A stretch of 44,668 bases of DNA from a virus. The translations under genes and the position numbers were made by a program. Below are positions 20,606 through 44,668 of this stretch, one piece after another. Every line of letters begins with the position of its first letter. Position 1 is the stretch's first letter. The DNA is taken from the IMG/VR virus record IMGVR_UViG_3300049032_000040, positions 1 through 44,668 of that record; one strand, given 5' to 3'. The notes beneath the pieces were generated by a model, which worked only from the letters and a program-made list of their open reading frames with translations, ran no database searches and had not been told where the DNA came from.

Positions 20606-20802
20606 GATTCGACCGCCCGTTCGACGCGGACGAGTCGTGCACGGTTCCAGTCGTCGAGATCCGATTCGTAGAAAGCGTTGCGGCGACCCTGTTTGAAGTA
20701 GACGGGTCCGACTCCCTCACTGATGAGGTTGTAGAGGGACTGTGCCGATGCGAGGCCACAGTATGCGGCGGCCTGTGCGGTCGTGTAGATGGGGGCGCTC
20801 AT
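20602..20802 (-). CDS. Excisionase / MerR-type HTH DNA-binding protein
   Basis: YTTAQAAAYCGLASAQSLYNLISEGVGPVYFKQGRRNAFYESDLDDW matches the Xis/AlpA-type HTH pattern. Confidence 0.65.
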   Translation of the reverse strand: MSAPIYTTAQAAAYCGLASAQSLYNLISEGVGPVYFKQGRRNAFYESDLDDWNRARLVRVERAVES

Positions 20803-21005
20803 GGTCCGACCACTGTCTGCAACTCGACGTTGAGTGCGGGTGCGATGAGGGACGCATATTCGACGGTGAGGGGCCGGCGTCCCTTGAGCTGGTTGAGGAG
20901 CGACTTGTAGGGAAGTCCGGTCTGGCGGTGCAGCTCAAGGACTGAGTAGCCCGCTTGCTTGCGGAGGTGGTCGAGCCTTGCTGCGACCGGGATTTTGTTT
21001 GCCAT
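20799..21005 (-). CDS. Cro-like XRE-family HTH regulator (68 aa; leaderless start proposed)
   Basis: HTH segment YSVLELHRQTGLPYKSLLNQLKG. The ATG at 21005 lies 6 nt downstream of a -10 TACCTT. Confidence 0.7.
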   Translation of the reverse strand: MANKIPVAARLDHLRKQAGYSVLELHRQTGLPYKSLLNQLKGRRPLTVEYASLIAPALNVELQTVVGP

Positions 21006-21011
21006 GTCCTC

Positions 21012-21040
21012 AAGGTATTCCCCAATGAGGGAAAAGCCAA
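21012..21040 (-). promoter_or_regulatory. Leftward early promoter with operator O1 in its spacer
   Basis: On the minus strand: TTGGCT (21040..21035), a 17-nt spacer, TACCTT (21017..21012), 6 nt, then the ATG at 21005. The spacer is TTCCC-N6-GGGAA (21018..21033). Confidence 0.5.
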
Positions 21041-21072
21041 GCGTTTGATACATGGATTTTCAGGTTTGTGGT

Positions 21073-21089: not shown

Positions 21090-21128
21090 CACTAGCCTTG
21101 GAGGTTGTCTACTAGCCGAACCGGAATA

Positions 21129-21158: not shown

Positions 21159-21164
21159 CAAAGG

Positions 21165-21446
21165 ATGGCTACACCAACATCTGAGCAGATCCGTCAGGCG
21201 ATGGGTGATCTCATCAACGCTGTCTACGGTGACTTCACCGCCGCCGCCAGGGAACTCCCTTACCCGTACAAGACGTTGTGGAAGAACTTCAGCGAGCCGG
21301 GGAACAAGGACCGCACGAAGACGGTCACCCTTGACCTGGTGATGGGGATCTATGCGGCGTTAAAGGAGCGCAACCCGAAGATCCCCGACTTCTCCTTGTT
21401 CCTGTCGCTTGTCGCCGCGGGTGAGCGCGTTGATCAGATCATCTAG
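21165..21446 (+). CDS. Candidate CI-like immunity regulator (93 aa)
   Basis: Divergent from the Cro-like gene. The ATG at 21165 follows the rightward promoter. Possible HTH around AARELPYPYKTLWKNF. The function is positional inference. Confidence 0.45.
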   Translation: MATPTSEQIRQAMGDLINAVYGDFTAAARELPYPYKTLWKNFSEPGNKDRTKTVTLDLVMGIYAALKERNPKIPDFSLFLSLVAAGERVDQII

Positions 21447-21701
21447 GCTCATGCAGTTTGCCCCTTCGAGGAAAGCGGGGCATACGGTGGCGCAAGCTTT
21501 GAGGCCGGAGCAGATTGTCATGGGGCACCTTCGTTGGTGGGGAGGCGGGGTCCGGGCCTCGTGTGGGGTTGGCGGGAGTCTATATCAGATTCGGCTTTGG
21601 ATTAACATACCCACCGTTTCGAATGTTTGTTCGAGAGTAGCTGGGGCCGCTGACATTGGGAAGGGGCATCATGCCTAGTGTCATCCGATCCCCTCACTGT
21701 C

Positions 21702-21730
21702 TATACATTCGTCTTTACCGGTGGTAGACT
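21702..21730 (+). promoter_or_regulatory. Candidate promoter for the integrase operon
   Basis: TATACA, a 17-nt spacer, then TAGACT. Lies about 45 nt upstream of the ATG at 21777, which has a GGGAAGGTGGGG SD. Confidence 0.3.
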
Positions 21731-21776
21731 GTAGGCGCACCAACCGAACGTCGGAGGGTGCTGGGAAGGTGGGGAC

Positions 21777-21935
21777 ATGAGTGCCAGGGACTACGCGCTG
21801 AGGATCACCGTGAATGCCGAACCAATAGGCGGTGGCAAGGAATCCCTCGACGTTGACATCGACATCGTCGAGCCAGGCACGAAGGAATGGGCGGCGGGGC
21901 TTCTGCGCCAGATCGCAGAGGACTTAGAGCGATGA
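21777..21935 (+). CDS. Hypothetical acidic small protein (52 aa)
   Basis: MSARDYALRITVNAEPIGGGKESLDVDIDIVEPGTKEW... with a good SD. Not in the ORF track. Confidence 0.4.
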   Translation: MSARDYALRITVNAEPIGGGKESLDVDIDIVEPGTKEWAAGLLRQIAEDLER

Positions 21936-21945: not shown

Positions 21946-22197
21946 ATGATGGGTAGCGTGCCACCGCGGACGACTGACTCCCGGACGCAACAGCTGAGGT
22001 CTCTCATCGATACCCTCGTCGGCGTCGTGGAGCGCCGCGGCGGTTTAATCAAGCAGGATGTGGCGGCTCAAGAGTTTGGACAGATGAGCGGCGTCTTCGG
22101 TCCCGATTTCTACTACGTGGTCAACTCGGCTGTGGCAGATGGAAGGATTACCACCAGTCTCCGATCTGGAATCCTACGACTTGCGGACGGTGCATGA
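21946..22197 (+). CDS. Hypothetical protein (83 aa), starts MMGSV
   Basis: Preceded by, and containing, the 21-nt motif GGTGCATGATGGGTAGCGTGC (21941..21961). Confidence 0.55.
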   Translation: MMGSVPPRTTDSRTQQLRSLIDTLVGVVERRGGLIKQDVAAQEFGQMSGVFGPDFYYVVNSAVADGRITTSLRSGILRLADGA

Positions 22198-22340
22198 TGG
22201 GTAGCGTGCAGACCCCGGTGACGAACTTCCGCATCCCGCCCGACATCAAGGCCGCGGCCCAGGCGAAAGCGGAAGCCGAGGGCAAGACGCTCTCCCGCGT
22301 CGTCATCGACCTCCTGCGCGAGTACGCGCGCGATGCCTAG
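22194..22340 (+). CDS. Ribbon-helix-helix protein (48 aa) translationally coupled to the integrase
   Basis: MMGSVQTPVTNFRIPPDIKAAAQAKAEAEGKTLSRVVIDLLREYARDA has the beta-alpha-alpha pattern of the CopG/Arc family. Its stop overlaps the int ATG by 8 nt. Not in the ORF track. Confidence 0.6.
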   Translation: MMGSVQTPVTNFRIPPDIKAAAQAKAEAEGKTLSRVVIDLLREYARDA

Positions 22341-23487: not shown

Positions 23488-23521
23488 GGTGTATGTACAC
23501 CTGGTAAGATGTATGTACACC
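23488..23521 (+). promoter_or_regulatory. Promoter with two 14-bp palindromic operators (sites A and B)
   Basis: GGTGTATGTACACC (23488..23501). Extended -10 TGGTAAGAT (23502..23510). GATGTATGTACACC (23508..23521). GGAG SD and the ATG at 23538 follow. Confidence 0.55.
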
Positions 23522-24375: not shown

Positions 24376-24387
24376 GGGCACGAAAAA

Positions 24388-24425
24388 GCCCCTCCGATCG
24401 TGTGACCGGAGGGGCTTTGTTGTCA
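24388..24425. terminator. Bidirectional rho-independent terminator
   Basis: GCCCCTCCG (24388..24396) pairs with CGGAGGGGC (24407..24415). It is flanked by AAAAA upstream and TTTGTTGT downstream. Confidence 0.65.
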
Positions 24426-24436
24426 GTGTTTTCTAG

Positions 24437-24505
24437 GGGTGGCGAGTGAGGGATTCGAACCCCCGAATGCTGAGCAGTCTGATATGCCGTACGCACTACG
24501 GGGGT
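24437..24505 (-). other. Probable attP core: 3' portion of a tRNA gene (T-arm plus acceptor), not a complete tRNA
   Basis: On the minus strand GGGGG-TTCGAAT-CCCTC, then ACTCGCC, A, CC (24464..24438). No cloverleaf can be completed upstream. Lies about 1 kb downstream of int and is flanked by the 22-bp direct repeats. Confidence 0.5.
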
Positions 24506-24574
24506 CTAATCTTGCCTACTTTTCCGCGTGTTTCCGGGGAAGAGTAGTCCTGGGTAGTGTGACGTAGCTCACGA

Positions 24575-24612: not shown

Positions 24613-24635
24613 GGTGTATGTACACCTGGTAAACT
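24613..24635 (+). promoter_or_regulatory. Promoter with palindromic operator (site E) driving a leaderless start
   Basis: GGTGTATGTACACC (24613..24626). Extended -10 TGGTAAACT (24627..24635). Six nt later, the ATG at 24642. Confidence 0.55.
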
Positions 24636-24641: not shown

Positions 24642-25040
24642 ATGACGAAGAAAGACATGCGCGCAATCGCCAAGTGCCTGGCAGGCGAGGACCGCGAGGC
24701 CAAAGCCGCCCTGGTACACCGTCGCCGAGAGGCGGGGTTGAAGCAGTCGGACATCGATGAGGCGTTAGGGGTGCCGGATGGGTGGACCCACGACATTGAG
24801 GCCTACGATTCCGACCCCTCGCTCTCCGACATGCGCAGGTACGAAGCCTACGTCACATACATTGAAGGATGCCGCGACTTCAACCCCGCCGAGGAAGTAG
24901 ACGAGCGGGAAGCGATCTTTGAAGAGTGGGCAGACGAGTTTCGCGACAGTGACGAGTACCGCGAGTACAACACAATCTTCCCTGGAACCGCTTTCATGGC
25001 CGGGTGGGATGCCGCACTCGGGGCGATCAATCATGAGTGA
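24642..25040 (+). CDS. HTH (XRE-like) regulator with an acidic C-terminal domain (132 aa)
   Basis: HTH-like segment LKQSDIDEALGVPDGWTHDIE. Leaderless context. Confidence 0.6.
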   Translation: MTKKDMRAIAKCLAGEDREAKAALVHRRREAGLKQSDIDEALGVPDGWTHDIEAYDSDPSLSDMRRYEAYVTYIEGCRDFNPAEEVDEREAIFEEWADEFRDSDEYREYNTIFPGTAFMAGWDAALGAINHE

Positions 25041-25224: not shown

Positions 25225-25382
25225 TGGTCACCATTGTTGACCCGACGAATGAGAACGTAGCGATCGTGGATGGCGAGATTGGACATGCTCTCCGAGTGGC
25301 GAAGGTCGCCGATCCGACGCGCCCCACGGTTGCCGAACTAGCGGGCGGCAAGATCATCGGATACGGCAACTTCACCTCTTGA
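25224..25382 (+). CDS. Hypothetical small protein (52 aa)
   Basis: The ATG at 25224 shares 1 nt with the upstream TGA. Confidence 0.4.
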   Translation: MVTIVDPTNENVAIVDGEIGHALRVAKVADPTRPTVAELAGGKIIGYGNFTS

Positions 25383-25418
25383 CAGGTGTACATACACCCG
25401 ATACCGTGTATGTACACC
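25379..25418 (+). promoter_or_regulatory. Consensus-like promoter with two palindromic operators (sites C and D)
   Basis: TTGACA (25379..25384), a 17-nt spacer, TACCGT (25402..25407). GGTGTACATACACC (25385..25398) fills the spacer. CGTGTATGTACACC (25405..25418) covers the -10 and the start site. AAGGAGG and the ATG at 25436 follow. Confidence 0.6.
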
Positions 25419-25881: not shown

Positions 25882-26039
25882 TGCCGAAGAACGAAGCGCT
25901 GCACCGCGATCACTCCCACGCGATTGTCACAGAGTCGTACAAGCTGAGGAATGTTGATCGCGTTGCTACTCACGAACTTCTCCGCTGCTTGAATGACGGT
26001 TGGTTCGGATGGGTTGCGAAGATCAAGGACGGTGCATGA
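25878..26039 (+). CDS. Hypothetical small protein (53 aa), starts MMP
   Basis: MMPKNEALHRDHSHAIVTESYKLRNVDRVATHELLRCLNDGWFGWVAKIKDGA. Junction motif at both ends. Not in the ORF track. Confidence 0.45.
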   Translation: MMPKNEALHRDHSHAIVTESYKLRNVDRVATHELLRCLNDGWFGWVAKIKDGA

Positions 26040-26350
26040 TGGGAAACGTGGCGAATCAACCGAAGACCCCCCACCGCACCATCCGTGTCTCACACGACAT
26101 CTGGAACGCGGCACAAGAGAAAGCCAAAACTGAGGGCCGCACACTGTCCGAACTGATCCGCGAATTCCTCACCGACTACGTAGACGGACGCGACGCCACA
26201 CGGATCGAACGCATCGAAACCATCCTCGACGGCATCGACCGTGTAGAAGACGGAACCGGTACAGGCTGGTGGGCAACAAGCGTCGGCGCAGAATTCGGGA
26301 CCGAGAAGCTTGCACAAATCCGAGACGCCATCACCGGCCACACCGACTAG
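26036..26350 (+). CDS. Ribbon-helix-helix protein, paralog of 22194..22340 (104 aa)
   Basis: MMGNVANQPKTPHRTIRVSHDIWNAAQEKAKTEGRTLSELIREFLTDY aligns with the int-proximal RHH, with about half the residues identical over about 33 aa by eye. Confidence 0.6.
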   Translation: MMGNVANQPKTPHRTIRVSHDIWNAAQEKAKTEGRTLSELIREFLTDYVDGRDATRIERIETILDGIDRVEDGTGTGWWATSVGAEFGTEKLAQIRDAITGHTD

Positions 26351-26869: not shown

Positions 26870-27907
26870 TCACACCCAGACACCACCAACACGAACACCC
26901 GTGTTGATCGGCACCCACGCGCCACCAGTTCGATACCACTCGTTATGAGGCAGCACGGTCACAGTCACCGTGTCCGCTGTAGACGTAGCGCCAAGATTGT
27001 CCGTCACGACCAGCGTAAACGTCAACGTGTCACCAGCCATGAGAGCCGGTGCCGTGAACGTACGGGTCGTTCCAGTACCACTGAGGGTCACCGTGGTTCC
27101 CCCAGTTTGCGTCCACGCGTACGAAGCGATCGTCCCATCCGAGTCCGTACCCGAACCCGTCAGAGTGACAGTCGTGTACGGTTCAACATCAACCTGATCC
27201 GTCCCAGCGTTCGCGGTCGGTGCAGCATTCGAGGCGACGCCTTGATGCAGGTTCGCGAGGAAGATGACACCCGCACCATTCGCACCAGTCGTCGTCGCAC
27301 TGAACGACACGGCACCAGTTGCACCAGTCGTTACCGTCGCGTCACGTTGCGAATAAGCCAACGTGTTCGTTGATGCTCGAGCCGACAGTCGCGAAGATTC
27401 CACGACCGTCGCACCCACCTGCGTCAGACCGATGGCCGTGAAGCTCGCACTATACGAAGCTGTCGGCGCCTTCGATGTCACGAAGGCAACCAGCGTGTCC
27501 TCACCACTCACCGTCGTCCACGACGAACTAGCCGCCGTGAACGCTGTAGAAGACGTGTCCGTATCCGACGTGAGAACATAGTTCGCAATGTCGAGTGTCT
27601 TCCCCGACTCGGGACGATACGCGGTCACCCACGCAAGCCCCTTCGTTCCCGCCGTCGTACCAAACGTCACGTTCCCCGACTCGGCCCCCGTTGACGTGCG
27701 CTTCCACACGCGCATCGACATGCCGCCGCCCGTGTGTACTGCACCAACCGCAGTCCACCCGGCAGCAAGATCAGAGATAGTCGACACATCCGAACTCGCA
27801 AACGCAAGCAGCAGATCACCCGACGCGTGACCGGTCGGATACGGTGCAGCCGCAGCAGTCGCCAAAGCCTGAGCCGCACCAAACGCGACAAATGCGGGTG
27901 CAACCAT
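26870..27907 (-). CDS. Structural or adhesin-like protein with a PKD/Ig-like domain
   Basis: C-terminal APTANAGTDQVDVEPYTTVTLTGSGTDSDGTIASYAWTQTGG...FTLVVTDNLGATSTADTVTVTV matches the PKD-type repeat pattern. Last gene of the late operon. Confidence 0.6.
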   Translation of the reverse strand: MVAPAFVAFGAAQALATAAAAPYPTGHASGDLLLAFASSDVSTISDLAAGWTAVGAVHTGGGMSMRVWKRTSTGAESGNVTFGTTAGTKGLAWVTAYRPESGKTLDIANYVLTSDTDTSSTAFTAASSSWTTVSGEDTLVAFVTSKAPTASYSASFTAIGLTQVGATVVESSRLSARASTNTLAYSQRDATVTTGATGAVSFSATTTGANGAGVIFLANLHQGVASNAAPTANAGTDQVDVEPYTTVTLTGSGTDSDGTIASYAWTQTGGTTVTLSGTGTTRTFTAPALMAGDTLTFTLVVTDNLGATSTADTVTVTVLPHNEWYRTGGAWVPINTGVRVGGVWV

Positions 27908-29139
27908 CAGACCACCGCCAACGACTGGTCAGGATTCGCGAACGTGTACGCACCCGTACCCGCAGTCGCCGTCGTCGAAATACGAGGACGACCAGTCCAC
28001 GTCCCCGTCTCCGCAGTACGACGAGTCACCTGAGCAACGAGTCGCCCACCGTTATGGTCGATCGCGTTCGCCGTGCCCATGTTCGCCCCATAGAACTGCA
28101 CCCCATACAGGCCAACCTCCGTGGATGCCTGCCCGGTCGTGTTGCCATTGATCTGCAACAGGCCATCCTCAGACGCATCCGGGTTGTCCATCCCCTGACC
28201 GATCTTTGTCCCGTAGAAGTTCCACGAACCACCATTGATGCGAACCTGCGCACCGGGGCCAGGACCAGCAAGCAGACCATTCACCCGCGTCGACTTGAAC
28301 CCCTCAATGACACCGCCATACCAGTCAACAGACGAGTTCCCGGTACCGAGGACACCACGCCAACCGTTCATCGTCGAGATGTACACCTTGCCGCTCACCG
28401 TCAGCTCGTTCGTGTCAATCTTGATGAACCACCGGTTGATGTCACCCGTCTGAGCCGACGACTGCGACACACCAATGTTCATCATTGCCGGGGCCAGATG
28501 ATTGTCCGAACCGCCCCAGTTGATGCACGTATCCCAACAGTTGTTGATCGTCCAGTTGCCCGTCACGGCCATCTGAGTCGACAGGAACTTACGATCCGAC
28601 CGGCCCAGCACACCCCGCATGAAGTTGAACGACAACGAATGCATCGCGGCCGGGTACATGGAACCGCCCGAAGCGAAGTCAATGAACTGGTGGGTGCTCG
28701 CGCCCTGAGAACCCTGCACCTGGAAGTTCGCAAACCATGCGTCATGCACGTCACTGCCGGGACTGTTCCACCACGACGACGTACCCGACGAAATCGACCC
28801 CCCTAGGGTGATCTCCGGGCCACCAAGCGAACCACTCGAAATGTCCGGGTTCTTCATCCCGTCATACCCCAACGCAACAACCTTCACCCCGTTGTACAGG
28901 GAACGAGGCGTCGTGAAAGAGATCGGACGCGACGGCAGAACAATCGCCGGCATGTTCCGATCCGTTGCTGCCTGCTGATCCGCAATCGCCGCGGTCAGCT
29001 TCTGATCATCCGTACCGTCATACTCATCCAGTCGGAAACCCTCAGCAGCCATCGCACGGATGTGCTTATCGACAGCGCCACCCCACGACGCCCACGACGC
29101 TCCCGTAGTCGGAAGGGTTGTGTCCCTGATACCAGCCAT
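27907..29139 (-). CDS. Beta-helix (pectate-lyase-fold-like) tailspike or depolymerase candidate
   Basis: 410 aa, rich in G/N/S/T, with periodic hydrophobic rungs and a W/N-rich segment (NWTINNCWDTCINWGG). The fold is assigned by eye only. Confidence 0.5.
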   Translation of the reverse strand: MAGIRDTTLPTTGASWASWGGAVDKHIRAMAAEGFRLDEYDGTDDQKLTAAIADQQAATDRNMPAIVLPSRPISFTTPRSLYNGVKVVALGYDGMKNPDISSGSLGGPEITLGGSISSGTSSWWNSPGSDVHDAWFANFQVQGSQGASTHQFIDFASGGSMYPAAMHSLSFNFMRGVLGRSDRKFLSTQMAVTGNWTINNCWDTCINWGGSDNHLAPAMMNIGVSQSSAQTGDINRWFIKIDTNELTVSGKVYISTMNGWRGVLGTGNSSVDWYGGVIEGFKSTRVNGLLAGPGPGAQVRINGGSWNFYGTKIGQGMDNPDASEDGLLQINGNTTGQASTEVGLYGVQFYGANMGTANAIDHNGGRLVAQVTRRTAETGTWTGRPRISTTATAGTGAYTFANPDQSLAVV

Positions 29140-29140
29140 G

Positions 29141-29257
29141 TCACTCCCCGAACGTCATACCGAAAGCAGAACCAAAACCGGCAGCGCCGATCGGTGTAAT
29201 GTCAGCGCGACCACGGCGCTTCCATAGGGCGGTGATCTTCACATAGATCGCAGCCAT
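29141..29257 (-). CDS. Hypothetical mini-protein (38 aa)
   Basis: MAAIYVKITALWKRRGRADITPIGAAGFGSAFGMTFGE. Fills the gap exactly: TGATG overlap upstream, and its stop lies 1 nt before the next ATG. Confidence 0.3.
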   Translation of the reverse strand: MAAIYVKITALWKRRGRADITPIGAAGFGSAFGMTFGE

Positions 29258-30525
29258 CAGGGAATCCGATGCCAGATGGTGCCGTCCGCGCCACCAGGAT
29301 CAGTGGACGACACGACAATGCCGAGAGCCGCACGTGCCGCAGTGATGTCCGCCGCGGTGAGCACAGAACGCCCAACCGTGGTCGAGTTGCTGATCTGGGA
29401 TGCGGTGAAAGACTTCGCAGAGTCCGCGGTGTTGTCAACGTTCCCCAGGCCCACATGCGTTTTCGTGATACCCGTGGGGGTGCCCGTGAACGCGGGGGAC
29501 GCGAGTGGCGCTTTTGCCGCAAGGGCCGTATCCAGACCGGTGACGTTTGCCGTCGTGTGGGTGTGGCTCGAGGCCGCTTTCCCATCCAACGCCGTCTGTG
29601 TCGCGGTGCTGATCGGCTTCGCAAGATCAGAAGTGTTGTCCACCGAACCGAGACCCACATGCGTCTTCGTCACACCCGAGACGGTGCCCGTGAACGTCGG
29701 AGAAGCAGTCGGTGCCTTCGCGTCGATGGCGGTCTGAAGACCGGTGACCGTCGAAATCGCCTGCGTGCCGGTGTGGTTCGCTCGAGACTTCAGGTTCGCA
29801 TCCGTGTCGTTCGCGGTCGCACCAGTAGAAACACCCGACAGCTTCGTCTTCTCCGTCAGCGTGTAGTACTTGACGGTCGTCGACTCGGCCAGATCAGCGA
29901 GAGTGGCATCCTCAGGAAGCCCCCCGCCCGTGACCTTCTCCCCCAGCGCATCCACCACGTCACCGTCAGCATCCAGTGCCGCAATGCCACCCGCAACACC
30001 CTTCATGTAGACAGGTGCGGGAACAGTAGGAGAACCCGGAGGCACCTCAACAGACCCCAGGTTGATGCCAGGGATCGTCGTACCAAGCTGAGACAGAAGC
30101 GGCTGGATCGCATACTCGCGACCACTCGCACCCGTCAGAGCTTCCTTGACCGTGACAGTCCAATCGCGCTGAGCAATATCAGGGTCGTCGGCGGCAGGGA
30201 AACCCGTGAAGATCGCAGCAGGAAGCACATACGTGTCCCACCACACATCCCACGCAGACCCATCAAACGCGACACCAAGCGCCACCTGATCTGCCGCACG
30301 CCAAGCCGTACGAACCGCAGCACGAACCGTCGCATCCTGCTGATCCGCCGCACCAATAGTCACCTGAACCTTCGCACCATCCGGGTAGATAGTGCGACCA
30401 TCCGTGCGAGTGATGCGCTGCGACAGTTTGAACTGCACATTGCCCTGCACGGGGGTGTCACCGGGCGCGGTCATGTACACGCCGTATACGGGGATCAGAT
30501 CCCACTGTCCAACCGGAGATGCCAT
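29257..30525 (-). CDS. Tail-fibre-like protein with repeated fibre motifs
   Basis: Two copies of ASP(T/A)FTGT..G(V/I)TKTHVGLG(S/N)VDNT(S/A)D. Located downstream of the holin. Confidence 0.6.
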   Translation of the reverse strand: MASPVGQWDLIPVYGVYMTAPGDTPVQGNVQFKLSQRITRTDGRTIYPDGAKVQVTIGAADQQDATVRAAVRTAWRAADQVALGVAFDGSAWDVWWDTYVLPAAIFTGFPAADDPDIAQRDWTVTVKEALTGASGREYAIQPLLSQLGTTIPGINLGSVEVPPGSPTVPAPVYMKGVAGGIAALDADGDVVDALGEKVTGGGLPEDATLADLAESTTVKYYTLTEKTKLSGVSTGATANDTDANLKSRANHTGTQAISTVTGLQTAIDAKAPTASPTFTGTVSGVTKTHVGLGSVDNTSDLAKPISTATQTALDGKAASSHTHTTANVTGLDTALAAKAPLASPAFTGTPTGITKTHVGLGNVDNTADSAKSFTASQISNSTTVGRSVLTAADITAARAALGIVVSSTDPGGADGTIWHRIP

Positions 30526-30530
30526 AGGGG

Positions 30531-30743
30531 TTAGTCCTCTTCGCTAGGGGTACCGCGGAATGCGATGGACGAGAGAACAGACACAGCGCCGGCCAGGCCG
30601 GCAACCGAAACGATCTGACCCCAGTCGACATCCAGCAGCCCGGTGACGTTCGCGGTCAGGACCGCAACAGCAGCCTGAGCGACCGTCGAAACTGCGCGGT
30701 CGAACGTGTCGACCCAGAACTCTTTGCTTGCGTACTTGCTCAT
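30531..30743 (-). CDS. Holin (phage r1t-like, two TM)
   Basis: 70 aa. KEFWVDTFDRAVSTVAQAAVAVL... plus a second TM segment IVSVAGLAGAVSVLSSIAF and an acidic C-terminus. Confidence 0.7.
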   Translation of the reverse strand: MSKYASKEFWVDTFDRAVSTVAQAAVAVLTANVTGLLDVDWGQIVSVAGLAGAVSVLSSIAFRGTPSEED

Positions 30744-31090
30744 TCTTTTGTCTCCAAATGCTCATCAAACTTGCGCTCGAGCTTCTTCACGGCGTCCTTC
30801 AAACTCGACCCGTGATTCGTCGTCACCTCGTGCTGAACGACCGCCAACGCCGCCGACTGCTTAGCGAGAGACACTGACTGTTCGTCCTGCTTCTCCTCCA
30901 CCACGGACAGGCGCTCCATCAGCCCTGGACGTGCAGGAACCCCCGCGCGTGCAGGCTCGCCGGCAACGTCATCAACGAAATGGTTGATCTTCCGCAGAAA
31001 CGGGAACACCTTCACCCCCACCCAGACCAGCACGCCGATAGCGGCCAACCAGGGTGTTACAGGGATCAGGTCGATAATCCACGCGGGCAT
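30740..31090 (-). CDS. Membrane protein of the lysis cassette (N-terminal TM plus coiled coil; holin or accessory)
   Basis: WIIDLIPVTPWLAAIGVLVWVGVKVFPFL followed by a helical, charged tail. Lies between the endolysin and the holin. Confidence 0.55.
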   Translation of the reverse strand: MPAWIIDLIPVTPWLAAIGVLVWVGVKVFPFLRKINHFVDDVAGEPARAGVPARPGLMERLSVVEEKQDEQSVSLAKQSAALAVVQHEVTTNHGSSLKDAVKKLERKFDEHLETKE

Positions 31091-31980
31091 CAGCTCGAGA
31101 GTCGTTTCGCGGCGTCGTCGTTCACGGCCTTCGCGATCGCGGTGTAATCGACCTTCGCGGTCGGTGTGCCGGTGGCCTCCACGACCGCATCTGCGATCGC
31201 CCTGACCTGCTCCTCGGTGATGCCACCCGACTGTGCAGCAGCGTTCGTCGACGCGAGGAACCCGGACGCGGGGAACTGCACGGGCTTTCCACCCGAGACC
31301 GCAGCGCCCCCCTTACCGTCCTGCGCCGTGACCAGGTGCCCCCACACGTTCTGCGGGATGACCTTGATCAGCGCAGAAACGCCCTTCTCGAGAAGGTCGA
31401 TACGCTCCCACAGCGTGGGTCCGAGCTGGCCGTTCGCGCCGAAGCCTCCAGGCCGCGCCTCGTACTGCAGAGCACGCTGCACGCTGTAGCGGATGTTCTT
31501 CAGGTCTTCCTCATTGAGGGGCATGTCGTCCTCCGTGGTTGATCCGCCCGCAGTTGAGCCGAGACGGTTAGCGATGAAAGGCACAGGATCTACCTGTCCA
31601 GTGTTCGAGTAGTGCACGTTGCCGGGGGTGACCTCGAAGTGAAGGTGGTCGTCGCTCGCGGTTCCGGTCTGCCCCATGATGCAGAGCGGGTCACCCTCAC
31701 GAACCCACTGCCCGACCTTCACCAGCAGAGACGCGGCATGCAGCGACTTGGTGAAGAACCCGTCGTGCTGCACCCACACCTGAATGCCACCACCAGACCA
31801 ACCACCCGGTGTCCCAGCAACCTTCACCTGACCCGACTCGACCGCCCGGATGATCGTGAACGTGTGCGAGAAGTCAGTCCCCTTGTGGTTCTTCGACGCG
31901 TTCGGAACGTTGATGTTCCGTGGGCCGAACGGGGACGACACGTACGGTTTCGATGTTGAACCGTTAGGCCAAACAGTCAT
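31090..31980 (-). CDS. Endolysin, M23 (LytM-type) peptidase with a C-terminal domain
   Basis: Motifs HKGTDF and DDHLHFEV, a G/S/T linker, then a C-terminal domain of about 150 aa. Confidence 0.8.
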   Translation of the reverse strand: MTVWPNGSTSKPYVSSPFGPRNINVPNASKNHKGTDFSHTFTIIRAVESGQVKVAGTPGGWSGGGIQVWVQHDGFFTKSLHAASLLVKVGQWVREGDPLCIMGQTGTASDDHLHFEVTPGNVHYSNTGQVDPVPFIANRLGSTAGGSTTEDDMPLNEEDLKNIRYSVQRALQYEARPGGFGANGQLGPTLWERIDLLEKGVSALIKVIPQNVWGHLVTAQDGKGGAAVSGGKPVQFPASGFLASTNAAAQSGGITEEQVRAIADAVVEATGTPTAKVDYTAIAKAVNDDAAKRLSS

Positions 31981-33519: not shown

Positions 33520-34478
33520 CGTCGCTCCCAACGCACCCCAAGCAGTAGCGCCGTCGAAAGGAACGTGTCTTCTGCATCGTCACCACCCAGTCGGGCGACG
33601 GTCAGACGAATCGTGTTCTCGTGGGTGCCGTCCAACGCCAGGGCATCAGTCGTCGGCGCCGCAATCACTGTGTTCTGTGCCGTCATGCCCGCCGTCACGT
33701 TCAGGACAGAACCCGCAGCATTCGTAGCCGCCCCGTCTTCCAGAACCGCCGCACGAAGGTTCCACCGCACACCACCAGAAGGCGAGGCGGTCGTTGTCGC
33801 ACACAGCACCGTGAAACCCACCGAGTACACACCACGGGGAATAGTCACCAGCGTTCCAACGACCTTGACATCGTTGTCAACGAAAGCCCAAGCGGGCGCC
33901 GAAGCAGTCGTATTGGCGGACGGGGAAAGTGAGGACATCGTTGGCGGTCTGTTGTCGACCGGGCCGAAGCGGTTCGCGCCAAGAGTCTCCTCGGACCGCG
34001 TCTCCGTGGCCTGCAAGACCGCAGAAGACGAATCCAGCAGCAACGCGATGAGCTGATGGAGGGTCAGAGTCGCGGGATCGTACCAGCGGTCATATACCGG
34101 GTCCATGAGGAGTCCCGGATCGACTGAACCAAGGAAGACGTTGCAGGCGCCGGGGACGCGTATCGGGTAGCCAGTTACCTCGTCGTACAGCCGGTAGACG
34201 ATGTACACAGCGTCAGCCGCCGCACGCGTCTCCGTGTCGGGCGAAGACAAGTACGTCGCGAACGCCGTATCATTCGCCACCGCGTTCGTACCAGGAAGGC
34301 CACGCGGCTGGAAGAAGTGGATGTACTGACCCTCATCGCCCGAAATGACCGGCGTGATATCCACCGTCTCATACGGGACAACCTCAGCGGTCGCAGCATC
34401 AAAAGTACCCGCCCGCCCCTTAGGACCAACCGGACCACGGATGTTCGCAAGCCATTCAGCATAAAGAGGAAGCGCCAT
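33516..34478 (-). CDS. Minor tail / receptor-binding candidate with a short collagen-like stretch
   Basis: N-terminal GPVGPKGRAGTF (G-X-Y x4). The C-terminal half is beta-rich. Lies in the tail-tip gene block. Confidence 0.55.
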   Translation of the reverse strand: MALPLYAEWLANIRGPVGPKGRAGTFDAATAEVVPYETVDITPVISGDEGQYIHFFQPRGLPGTNAVANDTAFATYLSSPDTETRAAADAVYIVYRLYDEVTGYPIRVPGACNVFLGSVDPGLLMDPVYDRWYDPATLTLHQLIALLLDSSSAVLQATETRSEETLGANRFGPVDNRPPTMSSLSPSANTTASAPAWAFVDNDVKVVGTLVTIPRGVYSVGFTVLCATTTASPSGGVRWNLRAAVLEDGAATNAAGSVLNVTAGMTAQNTVIAAPTTDALALDGTHENTIRLTVARLGGDDAEDTFLSTALLLGVRWERR

Positions 34479-34945
34479 CAGAAGTTCACCCCCACAGCGT
34501 AAGAACCAATGTCACCGGTCTCGGTGTCGAAATATGTGCCCGGTCTAGGTGACGCAGGCCACGGCGGACCAACAAAGAAACCGATCGCCGGCGCCTTACC
34601 CATGTCGCGGATCGGACCACCACCCGCAAACGCCGTGAACACCCAAATGTCGTTCCGCACAGGAGGATGGAACCCGTCAATGCCCTCCTCCTCGAACAAC
34701 GCCAGCTCGAGGACATACTTGACACCGATGCGCCCATCCGTGCCCGTCATCTCAGACGACGGGACAAGCCGCACCTCGAAGTAATCGGTCTCCGGGTCCA
34801 CGCTGATCGAACGCGGCTTACTGGAAATCAGACCAGCAGGCCCAAACGCCTCAACCTCAGGGCGAACAGTGAGCCGGGGACTCCACCGCGACAGGGGCTG
34901 ATACCCCAAAGCGTTCATGTTCCCGTAGTACAAAGCAGTCGACAT
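34478..34945 (-). CDS. Minor tail protein candidate (155 aa)
   Basis: Internal ATG at 34945. The upstream extension of the listed ORF runs through a terminator and promoter. Confidence 0.5.
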   Translation of the reverse strand: MSTALYYGNMNALGYQPLSRWSPRLTVRPEVEAFGPAGLISSKPRSISVDPETDYFEVRLVPSSEMTGTDGRIGVKYVLELALFEEEGIDGFHPPVRNDIWVFTAFAGGGPIRDMGKAPAIGFFVGPPWPASPRPGTYFDTETGDIGSYAVGVNF

Positions 34946-34959: not shown

Positions 34960-34983
34960 AAAAAAGCGCCCCATGGGGACGCG
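34960..34983 (-). terminator. Hairpin plus T6 on the minus strand, inside the tail operon
   Basis: The minus strand reads GCGTCCCCATGGGGCGC followed by TTTTTT (34965..34960). It lies 15 nt upstream of the ATG at 34945. Confidence 0.5.
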
Positions 34984-34990
34984 AAAACTC

Positions 34991-35019
34991 TTGCGGTGTA
35001 CATACACGACGCGTACACT
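34991..35019 (+). promoter_or_regulatory. Promoter with palindromic operator (site F) driving a leaderless lipoprotein gene
   Basis: TTGCGG (34991..34996), a 17-nt spacer, TACACT (35014..35019), 6 nt, then the ATG at 35026. GGTGTACATACACG (34995..35008) lies in the spacer. Confidence 0.55.
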
Positions 35020-35025
35020 CAAACC

Positions 35026-35451
35026 ATGAACAAGAAGCCGGTAGCCGCACTCGCAGTACTGCTAGCACTCACCCTCACCGGGTGTGCATCGGCCACGGGG
35101 AACGCGGCAGAAGAGGTAACGGCACCAGTCGTCACCGAAACCGCGGCACCCGAAGAAACCCCGGCTCCGCTCGTAGCCGAAGAACCCGCAAACGAAGCAA
35201 GCGGCCCGGATGCCAAGTTCCTCGAGTACGTGCGCGGTGCGATCCTGCCCGAGACTCAGATCGGCAACGCAACCGACCAGCAACTCATCGACGCAGGACA
35301 CGAAGCCTGCCGACAGCTCGAAGCCGGAACCGCACTCGAAGACGTGCGCGTAGTAGAAGGTGAGATCGCCCACCCGTCGACCGGCGCCTACTACGACACC
35401 AGCGCGATCATGGGTGGGGCGATCCTCAACTACTGCCCCCAGTTTGCCTAG
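35026..35451 (+). CDS. DUF732-family lipoprotein, inverted within the tail operon
   Basis: Signal peptide plus lipobox MNKKPVAALAVLLALTLTGC. An A/E/P linker. C-terminal domain with FL.YV...DQQLIDAGHEAC...AILNYCPQF, the DUF732 pattern. Confidence 0.8.
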   Translation: MNKKPVAALAVLLALTLTGCASATGNAAEEVTAPVVTETAAPEETPAPLVAEEPANEASGPDAKFLEYVRGAILPETQIGNATDQQLIDAGHEACRQLEAGTALEDVRVVEGEIAHPSTGAYYDTSAIMGGAILNYCPQFA

Positions 35452-36155
35452 GTCAGGCGCTTCAACTCGCCAGACTCATAGACAACCGCGCCTACGAACC
35501 CGCCTGGGACCGTAGCAACCGATTTGGTGTCCATGCCGGATGCATACACATGCCCCGACGTCACCCGAACGGCACTGCCACCAACCTGAATCTTCGCCTC
35601 AGAATCGCTGACCTGTAGGACACCGTTGCCCTTGTAGACCTGGATTGTCGAACCATCCGTGAACACCTGAGCACCATTCGCAAACGCGATCGCACCACCC
35701 GAGATGTTCGGATCAATCGTCATCGAACCGACCGTGATCTTCCCGCCACCCGTAACAGTGAAATTACCCGTCATCGTCGTGTTGCCAGTCTGAGTCACGT
35801 TCCCCGCAATGTTCCCGGCACCATTCATATTCCACGGGCCGTTCTGCGTGAGTGTTCCCGTTGTGGTCACGTTACCGGTAATCGTCACATTGCCAGAGAT
35901 GGTTCCCGCACCCGACAGATTCCACGGACCCGACACCGTAAACGAACCCGTCACAGTCGACGTGCCATTCACCGACATCGTGCCATTCACGATCAGGTTG
36001 CCGCCACCATCAACACGAATCGTCCCACCGATAATACGAATCTGACCATTCGTGACCGACGCCGCCTCAAGCGGGTTGGCTCGCTCCTGACGCTGCAAAC
36101 GCTTCTCAATATCCTCGAGACGCGCCGCCAGCTTCCTATTCAGATCATCAGCCAT
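35448..36155 (-). CDS. Minor tail protein with an N-terminal coiled coil and beta-helical G/N/T repeats
   Basis: ATG at 36155 overlaps the upstream stop by 8 nt. Repeats such as NGTMSVNGTSTVTGSFTVSGPWNLSGAGTISGNVTITGNVTTTG. Confidence 0.6.
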   Translation of the reverse strand: MADDLNRKLAARLEDIEKRLQRQERANPLEAASVTNGQIRIIGGTIRVDGGGNLIVNGTMSVNGTSTVTGSFTVSGPWNLSGAGTISGNVTITGNVTTTGTLTQNGPWNMNGAGNIAGNVTQTGNTTMTGNFTVTGGGKITVGSMTIDPNISGGAIAFANGAQVFTDGSTIQVYKGNGVLQVSDSEAKIQVGGSAVRVTSGHVYASGMDTKSVATVPGGFVGAVVYESGELKRLT

Positions 36156-41772: not shown

Positions 41773-41824
41773 ACCAAAGAAAAGGGAACCTGTGGGCGGT
41801 GCGGTGAGAAACACCACCCACAGG
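41773..41824 (-). terminator. Hairpin plus T-rich tract after the major tail gene (attenuator)
   Basis: On the minus strand CCTGTGGG...CCCACAGG is followed by TTCCCTTTTCTTTGG. Confidence 0.6.
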
Positions 41825-41833: not shown

Positions 41834-42334
41834 TTACGCGACCAGAGTCACGTTACGCACGGTCGGCTTCGTGATGAACACGCCATACTTCGCAGTGTCA
41901 ACACCATTCTCAACAGGCGCATCCGGCCGACGAACACCCACAACACCCGTCACAATGTCAGCCTTCTGACCGGCAGCATGCACATCACCATTCGCCACAG
42001 CACGACGAACAACAAACTGCACTTCCTCCTGCGACACAGACAGTGCAAGAAGAATCTGATCCGCCGAAGTCATCGTCGCCGACTCGACAACAGTCACCTC
42101 AAGCGTCTCCGACACCTTGCCAGGACGAGACAGATCCTGAATAAGCGTCAGACGCTTATCCTCAACAGTTGCCTGGTTGATCGTGTGATTCCAACCACCA
42201 GCAGTGATGCCATAAGTGATCGGGGAAGCGGCCTCAAGAATTGCCGCAGACGTTGCGTCATCGCCATCCTCGACAGCAGTGATCCTCCAACGTCCATCAG
42301 ACTGCGTGCTTGCTGGAACTCCTTCAAGAGCCAT
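41834..42334 (-). CDS. Major tail protein
   Basis: 166 aa, just upstream of the chaperones. Bracketed by hairpins, which is typical of highly expressed structural genes. Confidence 0.7.
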   Translation of the reverse strand: MALEGVPASTQSDGRWRITAVEDGDDATSAAILEAASPITYGITAGGWNHTINQATVEDKRLTLIQDLSRPGKVSETLEVTVVESATMTSADQILLALSVSQEEVQFVVRRAVANGDVHAAGQKADIVTGVVGVRRPDAPVENGVDTAKYGVFITKPTVRNVTLVA

Positions 42335-42400: not shown

Positions 42401-42427
42401 GAAAAAGCCCCATCCGGAGACAGGGCT
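42401..42427 (-). terminator. Terminator-like hairpin plus T5 upstream of the major tail gene
   Basis: On the minus strand AGCCC...GGGCT is followed by TTTTTC. Two further hairpins sit at 42375..42393 and 42353..42366. Confidence 0.45.
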
Positions 42428-42441
42428 TGAAATCAGTAGGT

Positions 42442-44209: not shown

Positions 44210-44668
44210 TTACGCCGTGGCGTCGAACTCAACGACCGCAAGAGCAGTCGGACGAACGACCTTCGCGCCGTACACGTGAAGACCCTTCACACCATCAGCG
44301 AATCGCTTCTCGAGACGCACGGCCTCAACCGAAGTGATCTGCTCAGCGAACGTGGTCGCCATACGGTGACCAGCAATCGCGATGCCACCAGTCGCGGCCA
44401 CATCAGTGACAGCGGGGAGGTTGTTCGACTTGTACAGCTCGAGTCCAGCGATCGACCCGATGTAGCCGTTCTGACGGGCCGCGGGTGCAGCCTGGTCGCC
44501 AGGGGTGATGAACGTGTCGAGCTTCAGCAGACGACCGTGCAGGGCCGGGGAAACGACCGCGAAACGGCCCTCCTCCGGTACGTTGTCCGTGTCGAGCGTC
44601 ACCGCAAGATCAACGAACGTGTCATACAGGTTCTTCGCGGTCGTGTGGATCGCAACCGTACCCAGGTC
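44210..44668 (-). CDS. Major capsid protein, 3' part (continuation of 1..529)
   Basis: The reading frame is open from the window end to the stop at 44210. C-terminus ...GVKGLHVYGAKVVRPTALAVVEFDATA. Confidence 0.85.
   Translation of the reverse strand, partial: DLGTVAIHTTAKNLYDTFVDLAVTLDTDNVPEEGRFAVVSPALHGRLLKLDTFITPGDQAAPAARQNGYIGSIAGLELYKSNNLPAVTDVAATGGIAIAGHRMATTFAEQITSVEAVRLEKRFADGVKGLHVYGAKVVRPTALAVVEFDATA
44542..44668. repeat. Second copy of the 127-bp terminal overlap
   Basis: Identical to 1..127. Confidence 0.95.

Follow-up and report, generated by a model that had tools for sequence, protein, structure and literature searches.

Introduction

In phage lambda, Bor is a lipoprotein, and its gene lies in reverse orientation. 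In HK97, gp15 is encoded by a moron in the tail operon and blocks superinfection (PMC3594210), and in T5 the gene of the lipoprotein Llp adjoins the receptor-binding protein gene (PMC9586334). Here we analyzed a DUF732 lipoprotein gene starting at position 35026 of the window, by which we mean the whole stretch of viral DNA under study (44,668 nucleotides, IMG/VR record IMGVR_UViG_3300049032_000040). Like the lambdoid morons (HK97 gene 15 and lambda bor and lom), this is an extra, apparently independently transcribed gene for a small envelope protein, located between late genes and present or absent in syntenic relatives. Unlike them, it lacks a terminator on its own strand, the terminator-like hairpins face the host operon, and its GC content is not deviant. 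Its promoter is, moreover, tied to a predicted regulon of ribbon-helix-helix (RHH) protein and operator, its host is a Gram-positive actinobacterium, and its protein family is unrelated to theirs.

With T5 Llp and the Cor proteins of phi80, N15, and T1, the locus shares the physical linkage of a small lipoprotein gene to tail or receptor-binding genes. With Ltp of the Streptococcus thermophilus phage TP-J34, it shares a Gram-positive host and a mature lipoprotein that is predicted to be tethered at the outer face of the membrane, although the Ltp gene sits in the lysogeny module and the DUF732 gene among tail genes. The DUF732 protein has no sequence or fold similarity to Llp, Cor, or Ltp.

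We consider it moderately likely that the region is a moron, that is, a self-contained transcription unit inserted in reverse orientation between two tail genes in the genome of a temperate Microbacterium siphophage. It is a new instance of a familiar type of extra prophage gene and calls for no new mechanism. DUF732 is a widespread actinobacterial family that includes Mycobacterium tuberculosis members, and the link of this phage copy to a single tail gene makes its function accessible to simple tests.

Results and Discussion

An inverted gene between two tail genes

According to independent gene calls on the source contig, the 35026 gene stands alone on the plus strand in a late region of about 18 kb, all others from 26870 to the end of the window being on the minus strand. 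The initial annotation had noted this, and all the sequence features it described were recovered, at exactly the same coordinates or within 1 nt. The gene and its flanks are as follows.

35026 to 35451 (stop codon included), plus strand: DUF732 lipoprotein gene (open reading frame, translation, and gene call on the source contig)
35448 to 36155, minus strand: convergent tail gene, 235 aa, beta-solenoid or fiber-like (gene call, weak tail-fiber PHROG matches)
35448 to 35451: CTAG holding both convergent stop codons (from the sequence)
34478 to 34945, minus strand: tail gene that follows in the late direction (155 aa), flanking the cassette on its mosaic side

The overlap of the two stop codons within one CTAG, already described in the initial annotation, is 4 nt long and has been kept in L002, L004, L005, L008, L010, L011, L012, and L138. 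Indeed, 11 distinct Microbacterium (pro)phage loci harbor an inverted DUF732 gene at the same site, convergent with a homologous tail gene. In L231, both flanking tail genes are present, 27 bp apart, with no cassette between them, and the homology of L231 to L010 begins again precisely where the ribosome-binding site of the next gene lies. The absence of the cassette from between abutting tail genes in L231 thus points to a classic moron. With regard to the Hendrix/Juhala definition of morons, presence and absence among syntenic relatives was found (L010 versus L231), while a downstream terminator of its own and a deviant base composition were not. The GC content of the DUF732 gene is 0.62 to 0.64, compared to 0.59 to 0.62 for its neighbors, and because there is no anomaly, we rejected base composition as evidence of horizontal acquisition.

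Across loci, the identity of the DUF732 proteins followed that of the convergent tail gene (r = 0.85) and was unrelated to that of the other neighbor (r = 0.07). These values place the mosaic breakpoint on the promoter side, and the C terminus of the convergent gene is inherited together with the DUF732 gene.

The cassettes have one of three front ends. The first, found in relatives, is a leader with a hairpin and a Shine-Dalgarno sequence. The second consists of a translationally coupled leaderless RHH gene (TTGTAT-17-TACGGT-6-ATG; L011, L012, and L139). The third, that of the window, combines a leaderless start with a trans-acting operator.

The predicted DUF732 lipoprotein

The open reading frame extends from the ATG at 35026 to the TAG at 35449 to 35451 and encodes 141 aa including the signal peptide, the protein beginning with MNKKPVAALAVLLALTLTGC. 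It comprises the following two regions.

35026 to 35085, plus strand: lipoprotein signal peptide (n-region MNKK, h-region PVAALAVLLALTL, lipobox L-T-G-C at codons 17 to 20, positions 35074 to 35085)
35209 to 35442, plus strand: DUF732 domain (residues 62 to 139), three helices, with conserved Cys95 and Cys137

As a lipoprotein signal we took a positively charged n-region, a hydrophobic h-region, and a lipobox of the form [LVI][ASTVI][GAS]C; the sequence of the 35026 gene product reads MNKK, PVAALAVLLALT, and L-T-G-C at these places. L17, G19, and C20 are invariant across 26 homologues, as are C95 and C137. A search with HMM profiles assigned the C-terminal part to Pfam DUF732 (PF05305) with an E value of 3.2e-9 and 37.5 bits, above the gathering threshold of 22.4, the match covering profile positions 2 to 72 of 72, and the same family was assigned to 36 of 36 homologues. 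Both the domain and the lipobox are thus as first proposed from the sequence.

In the AlphaFold2 model, residues 61 to 141 have a pLDDT of >90 and residues 21 to 60 are disordered. All structural matches among viral proteins were DUF732 proteins, the best ones from actinobacteriophages, and the sole matches in the PDB sequence search and NCBIfam were the signal peptides of the lipoproteins LpqN and LpoB. From these features, we predict that the product would be exported via Sec, lipidated at Cys20, and cut by signal peptidase II, to give a mature 122-aa lipoprotein at the outer face of the membrane. There, an acidic, disordered linker of about 40 residues, rich in Pro, Ala, and Thr, would bear the three-helix DUF732 domain, which is probably disulfide bonded.

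Neither megablast nor blastn found a match of the region in the collection of sequenced phages, and tblastn with the DUF732 protein gave none at an E value of 1e-3. At an E value of 10, only weak DUF732 matches appeared, in lytic Arthrobacter, Mycobacterium, Streptomyces, and Gordonia phages. The known actinobacteriophage DUF732 proteins (Arthrobacter phage Sergei gp36, Mycobacterium phage Troll4 gp76, and those of the Gordonia phages Suzy and GMA6) share the Pfam domain with our protein, are similar to it in size, and likewise have an N-terminal signal or membrane anchor, with identities to it of at most about 26% and tblastn E values of at least 0.01. Unlike the gene in the window, which is inverted, their genes read forward and are located among early or right-arm genes, mostly of lytic phages.

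Readings of the function

By analogy with the systems described above, the DUF732 lipoprotein probably acts at the cell surface, where it would most likely block the entry of related phages or otherwise alter the envelope. Superinfection exclusion is a reasonable analogy; no homology or fold match to proven exclusion proteins was found in PHROG, Pfam, PADLOC, and fold and structure searches. PADLOC returned no match for the DUF732 lipoprotein or for nine lysogeny-side proteins.

The protein might instead be a lysogenic-conversion factor that alters the physiology of the host envelope, possibly by binding a wall, lipid, or metal ligand, as is presumed for secreted DUF732 proteins of cells, with no role in exclusion, which we regard as unlikely. 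DUF732 proteins are mainly secreted proteins or lipoproteins of actinobacterial cells, and DUF732 is listed among mycobacterial families (PMC3388012). Across loci, the DUF732 domain is more conserved (53 to 88% identity) than the adjacent tail protein (25 to 85%), suggesting a conserved host target. An acyltransferase moron lies nearby in related prophages, and overexpression of Troll4 gp76, a DUF732 protein, is toxic to Mycobacterium smegmatis (PMC7474061). However, the linkage of the DUF732 gene to one tail gene is tight and exclusive in 11 of 11 loci, reminiscent of how Llp and Cor are linked to receptor-binding genes, and no ligand-binding fold was recognized in a search of PDB folds, where the DUF732 protein had no match at an E value of <5.

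An accessory role in lysis or release, comparable to that in which the lipoprotein gp64 of mycobacteriophage D29 was recently implicated, appears very improbable. Phage lipoproteins are able to modulate lysis, but the fold of D29 gp64 is different, being mainly beta-sheet (bioRxiv 10.64898/2026.08.27.747656). The lysis cassette is located 3 to 4 kb downstream in the same late region, but the DUF732 gene is on the strand opposite to the lysis genes and has its own putative promoter of the early or constitutive type. Furthermore, Microbacterium has no mycolate outer membrane that would need a spanin-like lipoprotein.

A putative leaderless promoter

Upstream of the gene, on the strand opposite to all its neighbors, are a putative promoter and a palindrome in its spacer.

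34991 to 35019, plus strand: putative promoter P6 (-35 TTGCGG at 34991 to 34996, 17-nt spacer, -10 TACACT at 35014 to 35019)
34995 to 35008: operator O6, GGTGTACATACACG, in the P6 spacer

The -10 element is followed by 6 nt (caaacc) and then by the ATG at 35026, with no Shine-Dalgarno sequence. Starts were called leaderless if a -10 element precedes the start codon by 6 to 7 nt and no Shine-Dalgarno sequence is present, and the P6 gene has this arrangement. The same layout is common to three genes of the window, the other two being at 21165 (TACACT-caaagg-ATG) and 24642 (TAAACT-cgaagc-ATG), both of which had been pointed out in the initial annotation together with the TTGCGG-17-TACACT-6-ATG promoter. 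All three are present as described, and the sequence of P6 is that expected of an independent promoter of the leaderless type. The leaderless design recurs in the homologous cassettes L011, L012, and L139, while those of the relatives that have a leader carry GGAGGA instead. The -35 hexamer shares only three of its six bases with TTGACA, and a generic sigma-70 scan did not flag P6. The architecture of -35 element, -10 element, and leaderless start is a recurrent one.

P6 would be of the housekeeping-sigma type, with a transcript starting at or adjoining the A of the ATG, and the mRNA would therefore be leaderless. A plus-strand terminator was not found after 35451. With no terminator of its own, the gene would yield a transcript that runs antisense into the tail gene and is probably halted by Rho.

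A shared operator and its likely repressor

The palindrome in P6, GGTGTACATACAC(C/G), occurs six times in the window (at 23488, 23508, 24613, 25385, 25405, and 34995), each time in the spacer of a plus-strand promoter. It is a 14-bp palindrome with 6-bp arms around a CA/TG center, and 0 of 100 shuffled sequences reached this copy number. O6 is the same 14-mer as O5, on the opposite strand. The other copies and the candidate regulators are listed below.

23488 to 23521: operators O1 (23488 to 23501) and O2 (23508 to 23521) in promoter P1 (-10 TAAGAT at 23505 to 23510), upstream of genes 23538 and 23813
24613 to 24626: operator O3 in the leaderless promoter P3 (-10 TAAACT at 24630 to 24635), which drives the HTH gene 24642 to 25040
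25379 to 25418: promoter P4 (TTGACA-17-TACCGT), holding O4 (25385 to 25398) and O5 (25405 to 25418) and heading the operon that contains the RHH gene
26036 to 26350, plus strand: Arc-like RHH protein of 104 aa, RHH104 (phrog_6506, "Arc-like repressor," E value of 2e-14; RHH_1 and NikA-like matches)
22194 to 22340, plus strand: second Arc-like RHH protein of 48 aa, RHH48 (phrog_6506, E value of 1.7e-10), directly upstream of int

The palindrome had been presented as a link between the lipoprotein gene and the accessory genes close to int. It is indeed common to the promoters that flank int and attP, but it is more than an int-proximal link, as the operator defines what is likely a regulon of four promoters whose repressor would be encoded in one of its own operons.

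The O4/O5 pair is located 631 to 651 bp upstream of the RHH gene 26036. Peptide patterns retrieved no relatives of RHH104, and the association was recovered by an operator scan instead. Among contigs retrieved by the operator pattern alone, 21 independent viral contigs have a homologous RHH gene downstream of the operator and in the same direction, at a distance of 40 to 1,000 bp, and in only two loci is the operator located after the RHH gene. Because the operator precedes an Arc-like RHH gene in 21 unrelated viral contigs, RHH 26036 is likely an autoregulating repressor, and it is on sequence grounds the most likely binder of the operator. RHH48 is a possible alternative regulator; in L148, which has both RHH types, the RHH48 homologue is far from the operator. 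The HTH protein 24642 is also a possible regulator; homologues of it are very few, and none of its relatives were found in viral contigs. In the closest relative, L005, homologues of both RHH proteins are present, yet there is no operator within the 15 kb available.

A dimeric Arc-like RHH repressor is predicted to bind the operator in the P6 spacer and would in addition shut down the operon that encodes it, as well as two other plus-strand promoters next to attP. In this respect the window resembles the immI region of P22, where the RHH repressors Arc and Mnt control P_ant. It has the elements of an Arc/Mnt-type circuit, namely, an RHH gene and palindromic operators (O4 and O5) in P4 upstream of 26036. 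As in P22, the gene of a presumed Arc-like repressor lies within the operon that it would repress, the promoter and a palindromic operator overlap, and there is a second RHH paralogue. The predicted circuit is likewise distinct from the main cI/cro switch, and the genes that it would control include ones lodged within the late region. Unlike in P22 immI, no antirepressor was identified, the cargo consists of envelope and accessory genes, the operator sequence is unrelated, and binding is predicted.

In L065 and L178, the same operator and RHH family appear to control a different lipoprotein and a membrane protein, the gene of each being likewise inverted among late genes. More than 20 unrelated viral contigs pair this operator with an Arc-like RHH gene, and the pair is a reusable regulatory module that could be annotated and could serve as a genetic tool.

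Timing of expression

The main-switch operators (TTCCC-N6-7-GGGAA) are confined to 21018 to 21152 and are absent from P6. Because P6 belongs to the RHH regulon and has no main-switch operator, we expect a probable early burst and damped constitutive expression, not simply expression that is on in the lysogen. More precisely, the sequence predicts a burst on infection and then damped expression that would last into the lysogen, uncoupled from late transcription. In lytic Arthrobacter phages, e.g., Sergei, DUF732 genes also occur among the early genes and read forward, and prophage expression is therefore not a family trait.

It is possible, though on the unlikely side, that the gene is an immediate-early "lytic conversion" gene like that of T5 Llp, with the RHH repressor closing P6 in the lysogen so that a burst would occur only after infection or induction. 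In that case, the lipoprotein would keep out superinfecting phage and prevent the adsorption of progeny to cell debris. The position of the operator squarely in the P6 spacer is in agreement with such a role, as are the early location of DUF732 genes in phages such as Sergei and the precedent of T5 Llp, an early lipoprotein encoded beside the receptor-binding protein gene (PMC9586334). In addition, the second Arc-like RHH gene (22194) shares an operon with int, which should be active in lysogeny. However, the comparative data favor the autoregulated RHH 26036 over RHH48 as the binder, and negative autoregulation damps a promoter without silencing it. The promoters of the relatives, moreover, have either no recognizable operator or a built-in autoregulating RHH gene, both of which predict constitutive expression in the prophage.

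A hairpin on the late strand

In the late direction, P6 is followed by a hairpin.

34960 to 34982, minus strand: hairpin T1 and T6 (stem-loop 34982 to 34966, T6 34965 to 34960), 14 nt upstream of the ATG of the next tail gene at 34945

T1 (GCGTCCC-CAT-GGGGCGC) has 7 base pairs, 6 of which are GC, and a free energy of -11 to -12.4 kcal/mol. With terminators strictly defined as a stem of at least 6 bp with at least 5 GC pairs and then T6, it is the sole one on both strands of the 44.7-kb window, compared to a mean of 0.05 after shuffling. The hairpin and its T6 lie within 1 nt of where they had been placed, and, as had been remarked, the element is unusual and late transcription must cross it. 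T1 has the stem-loop and U-run of a terminator but is within the late operon and not at the end of a transcription unit. The proposal that it insulates the inserted gene in a lysogen did not hold, because T1 lies beyond the promoter in the late direction and cannot insulate the DUF732 gene. Any shielding could extend only to the fiber and lysis genes downstream; alternatively, T1 may function as an attenuator, as a standby site for translation, or in stabilizing RNA.

Homologous hairpins are found in L005, L010, and L138 and are absent from the cassette-free L231. In relatives, the hairpin that precedes the promoter is a second one, T2, which the window lacks. T2 covaries, with compensatory changes at 6 of 12 pairs, and G-U pairs form on the late strand only, both in the T1 of the window and in the T2 of the relatives. 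Comparison of these sequences indicates that the hairpins belong to the inserted cassette and not to the tail operon.

Since late transcription must read through T1, T1 would be either a partial terminator or attenuator or be overridden by antitermination. A PHROG search of the genes upstream of the terminase gene revealed no recognizable antiterminator or late activator, and inspection by eye revealed no minus-strand promoter from which late transcription could resume after T1 or an antisense RNA could arise. A terminator that is crossed by the phage's own late transcription is unexplained by the moron model, and its presence on a cassette within an essential operon provides a concrete site at which to seek antitermination or attenuation in actinobacteriophage late transcription.

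A minority possibility is that T1 is no functional terminator at all and serves as an RNA element restoring the expression of downstream late genes after a gap of about 500 nt of untranslated antisense sequence. The hairpin would then stabilize the 5' end of the downstream RNA or insulate the ribosome-binding site, the U-run being a ribosome standby before the Shine-Dalgarno sequence. This would fit the fact that a U-rich tract abuts the Shine-Dalgarno sequence of the next tail gene in four of the four loci having T1, and that T1, which came in with the cassette, is missing where the two tail genes directly adjoin. It would also fit the essential nature of the downstream fiber and lysis genes, the remaining 14 nt being too short for a promoter. 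Yet a GC-rich 7-bp stem followed directly by U6 is a textbook terminator signature, the sole one in the genome, and the cassettes coupled to an RHH gene do without any hairpin.

Far more improbable is that the hairpins end a short cis-antisense RNA that arises within the DUF732 coding region and controls its translation, as in type I antisense systems. No TANNNT -10 element was seen by eye on the minus strand between 35026 and 35150, i.e., in the first ~125 nt of the coding region, and antisense RNA is already supplied by late transcription; no Rfam family matched at the gathering score anywhere in the window. In favor of such an RNA, the hairpin structures are under selection on the antisense strand and move together with the cassette, and the T2 of the relatives lies immediately beyond the sequence antisense to the ribosome-binding site and start codon.

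We also considered the 80-nt intergenic RNA as a whole as a structured element and rejected it: its folding is unexceptional (z = 0.36), and only the small hairpin matters.

The terminator-like signals, the lipoprotein, and the operator can be combined in a single, decidedly doubtful reading. The late-strand stop signals of the cassette (T1 in the window, joined by T2 in relatives) could be tolerated only if this Microbacterium phage lineage transcribed its late genes with processive antitermination. Separately, the DUF732 lipoprotein would exclude phages by blocking their entry and would be locked genetically to the very tail-tip gene that it protects against, and the Arc-like RHH protein with the GGTGTAYRTACACC operator would be a portable module that actinobacteriophages reuse for inverted envelope-protein morons.

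The Microbacterium prophage lineage

Temperate Microbacterium phages are barely described, and the loci compared here define a conserved prophage lineage. Two of its hosts, Microbacterium sp. MYb62 (PCOY01000009) and M. oxydans NBRC 15586, are named strains that it may be possible to obtain. A metagenome scan added short contigs only. In the L002 and L004 prophages, a second inverted gene is located nearby and encodes an Acyl_transf_3 acyltransferase.

A lipoprotein gene inverted within the late region of a complete phage genome

The window, a JGI metagenome contig, ends in a 127-nt direct repeat (positions 1-127 and 44542-44668), indicating a circular assembly and a complete phage genome with a unique length of 44,541 bp. 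A comparison with 50,697 sequenced phages gave no nucleotide relative. Its host is very probably a Microbacterium species, since every organism-named homologue of the lipoprotein studied here comes from this genus. Early, terminase, head, tail, and lysis genes are all on the minus strand; the lysogeny side occupies 21.1-26.9 kb on the plus strand.

Features of the window
20799..21053, minus: cro-like HTH gene
21165 (ATG), plus: leaderless gene with -10 TACACT
22194..22340, plus: RHH48, Arc-like ribbon-helix-helix (RHH) gene, 48 aa
22333..23478, lysogeny side: tyrosine integrase (int)
24642 (ATG), plus: leaderless HTH gene
26036..26350, plus: RHH104, Arc-like RHH gene, 104 aa
about 30531..30743, minus: r1t-type holin
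31090..31980, minus: M23 peptidase endolysin
34982-34960, minus: T1, hairpin GCGTCCC-CAT-GGGGCGC plus T6, ending 14 nt short of the next tail gene's ATG
35026..35451, plus: DUF732 lipoprotein gene, 141 aa, start MNKKPVAALAVLLALTLTGC
35448..36155, minus: convergent 235-aa tail gene

Independent gene calls placed the DUF732 gene as the sole plus-strand gene from 26870 to the end of the window. The protein matches Pfam DUF732 with 37.5 bits (cutoff, 22.4), and its lipobox cysteine (Cys20) is invariant in 26 homologues, as are C95 and C137, which bears out the domain and lipoprotein calls of the initial annotation. In the AlphaFold2 model, a disordered linker (residues 21 to 60) precedes a confident three-helix domain (residues 61 to 141, pLDDT above 90). 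No solved structure resembling this model was found, and the best viral structural matches were annotated DUF732 proteins of Arthrobacter, Gordonia, and Mycobacterium phages. The promoter, P6, has the hexamers and the 17-nt spacer that had been claimed; its -10 is followed by 6 nt and the ATG, with no Shine-Dalgarno sequence, and the same leaderless design recurs at 21165 and 24642. At the other end, a CTAG (35448-35451) contains the stop codons of both convergent genes. All sequence features initially described were found, confirming the observation in full. Its reading is right in outline: a lipoprotein moron, transcribed independently under operator control, with an odd terminator on the late strand.

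The cassette is a conserved insertion with exchangeable front ends

The gene occupies the same position in 11 distinct Microbacterium phage or prophage loci (designated L plus a number, like the other loci and viral contigs compared), including Microbacterium sp. MYb62, M. oxydans NBRC 15586, and Microbacterium sp. Se63.02b. In all of them a homologue of the 235-aa tail gene converges on it, and the 4-nt stop-stop overlap is common to the window and eight other loci. L231 harbors the same two tail genes with only 27 bp between them and no cassette, and the point where its homology to the cassette-bearing L010 picks up again is precisely the next gene's ribosome-binding site. Judged by this presence/absence pattern, the defining property of a moron, the cassette is a moron.

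Across loci, the identity of the DUF732 domain followed that of the C terminus of the convergent tail protein (r = 0.85) and not that of the promoter-side gene (r = 0.07), pointing to a mosaic junction at the promoter end. The domain was conserved at 53 to 88%, compared to 25 to 85% for the tail protein. Three interchangeable front ends precede the gene.

Front ends of the DUF732 cassette
Type A (L002, L004, L005, L008, L010, L138): -10 TAGACT or TACGAT; leader of about 70 nt with an internal 12-bp hairpin (T2) and a Shine-Dalgarno sequence
Type B (L011, L012, L139): leaderless RHH gene of 44 to 48 aa, translationally coupled to the DUF732 gene
Type C (window): leaderless DUF732 gene, operator in the promoter spacer

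A promoter-like region, TTCGTC ... TAGACT, precedes the RHH48-int operon in both the window (21660-21780) and its closest relative, L005 (2330-2430); its -10 is that of the type A cassettes.

An Arc-like protein is the predicted regulator

The operator, GGTGTACATACAC(C/G), is present in six copies (O1 to O6); every copy lies in a promoter spacer, and the four promoters concerned are all on the plus strand.

P1: two sites, ahead of 23538
P3: one site, ahead of the leaderless HTH gene at 24642
P4, TTGACA-17-TACCGT: two sites, ahead of a small-gene operon
P6: one site, ahead of the DUF732 gene

The P6 14-mer is identical to one of the P4 sites. Most of the matches from scanning viral contigs by the operator pattern alone were due to chance. 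In 21 loci, the operator is followed at a distance of 40 to 1000 bp by a co-oriented Arc-like RHH gene whose product has the N terminus PNQPKTPxRxxR(I/V) (L016, L018, L030, L034, L070, L079, L108, L110, L121, L148, L157, L159, L160, L182, L194, L204, L207, L216, L223, L226, and L228). The module is widespread in IMG/VR contigs, with one to three copies of GGTGTAYRTACACC, often 20 to 24 bp apart, upstream of the RHH gene. The window follows the majority pattern, with O4 and O5 631 to 651 bp upstream of RHH104, which matches phrog_6506 ("Arc-like repressor"; E = 2e-14). RHH48 and the HTH protein at 24642 are possible alternative binders; in L148, which carries both RHH types, the operator-adjacent one resembles RHH104. 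From these 21 loci, L148, and the layout of the window, we infer that RHH104 would repress its own operon as well as P1, P3, and P6.

The order is reversed in only two loci, where the operator closely follows the RHH gene. In L065 (1196-1837) it directly precedes a different lipoprotein, with an LSGC lipobox and without a Pfam match, and in L178 (11367-11884) a two-helix membrane protein; each cassette is inverted and lies between tail-fibre and lysis genes. There, the operator would control the gene that comes next.

Three copies (0.14 expected) of a different palindrome, TTCCC-N6-7-GGGAA, separate the cro-like gene from the divergent leaderless gene at 21165, and none lies elsewhere in the window; the region 21018-21165 looks like the main lysis-lysogeny switch. 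The proposal of an operator-controlled independent unit stands in outline, with one correction: control probably lies with an Arc-like RHH protein that also regulates its own operon and works independently of the main switch. The closest formal analogue of this predicted circuit is immI of P22, where Arc limits P_ant.

The late-strand terminator is part of the cassette

A loose terminator scan gave 14 matches in the window versus 14.9 expected, i.e., no overall enrichment. Under a strict definition, T1 alone qualified as a canonical intrinsic terminator when both strands of the whole genome were considered (shuffle mean, 0.05). T1 has homologues in L005, L010, and L138, and in each case its U-rich tail runs directly into the Shine-Dalgarno sequence that precedes the next tail gene. 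In T2, found in the relatives, 6 of 12 pairs show compensatory changes and 95.8% of cells are paired. The wobbles of both hairpins pair as G-U in RNA of the late strand; in RNA of the gene's own strand they would be C-A mismatches, indicating that the structures are selected in late-strand RNA. Both lie within the inserted segment, and neither is present in L231 or in type B cassettes. By sequence comparison, the hairpin thus belongs to the cassette and not to the tail operon.

Its proposed role as an insulator of the inserted gene fails: T2 lies ahead of the cassette promoter in the late direction and could shield it from oncoming polymerases, whereas polymerases meet T1, the only one of the two in the window, when they have already passed the promoter, so that it offers no such shield. 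Late-strand transcripts could be attenuated or ended by T1 ahead of the fibre and lysis genes, or T1 could help translation restart past a roughly 500-nt untranslated gap. Since the remaining 14 nt are too short for a promoter, late transcription must read through T1; PHROG searches of the genes upstream of the terminase gene yielded no recognizable antiterminator.

Two further strong minus-strand hairpins, at 41789-41824 (14 pairs) and 42405-42428 (10 pairs), bracket the major tail protein gene (41834..42334) and are probably attenuators or stabilisers inside the late operon.

Possible functions of the lipoprotein

No similarity was found between the protein and Llp, Cor, Ltp, or any PADLOC defence protein. 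By analogy, it may act in superinfection exclusion: HK97 gp15 is likewise a tail-operon moron and blocks superinfection (PMC3594210), the gene for the T5 lipoprotein Llp adjoins that of the receptor-binding protein (PMC9586334), and Ltp is an exclusion lipoprotein from a Gram-positive setting (PMC3952083). The strict linkage of the DUF732 gene to one tail gene adds to this case. DUF732 genes also occur among the early genes of lytic Arthrobacter phages, which counts against a purely prophage role, and a mycobacteriophage DUF732 protein is toxic on overexpression (PMC7474061).

In related Microbacterium prophages, a second inverted gene, encoding an Acyl_transf_3 acyltransferase (L002, 6677-7822; L004, 7215-8306), lies close by, between the tail-fibre and lysis genes. 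It is likely a cell-surface modification moron, which fits the use of this region for envelope-modifying cargo.

Other features of the window

Following the endolysin and holin genes on the same strand are three large fibre-like or PKD-domain-like genes (422, 410, and 345 aa), so that within 26870-31980 the lysis cassette is embedded among tail-fibre-like genes.

On the lysogeny side, a strong hairpin at 24380-24423, with an A-run on one side and a T-rich stretch on the other, resembles a bidirectional terminator. After it, the minus strand (about 24440-24480) carries GGGATTCGAACCC, resembling a tRNA/tmRNA 3' end (weak tmRNA match, E = 0.13). The region, 24380-24510, is a candidate attP core; int lies about 1 kb upstream of it, separated by two genes, and P3 follows immediately downstream.

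Finally, a junction motif, (G)GNCGGTGCATGATGG, consisting of a conserved ribosome-binding site and an ATGA stop/start overlap, occurs 5 to 6 times (21937, 22185, 23804, 25212, 25869, and 26027). Several of the genes that follow it, both RHH paralogues among them, begin with MMG(S/N)V, suggesting that gene starts may have been duplicated or shuffled.
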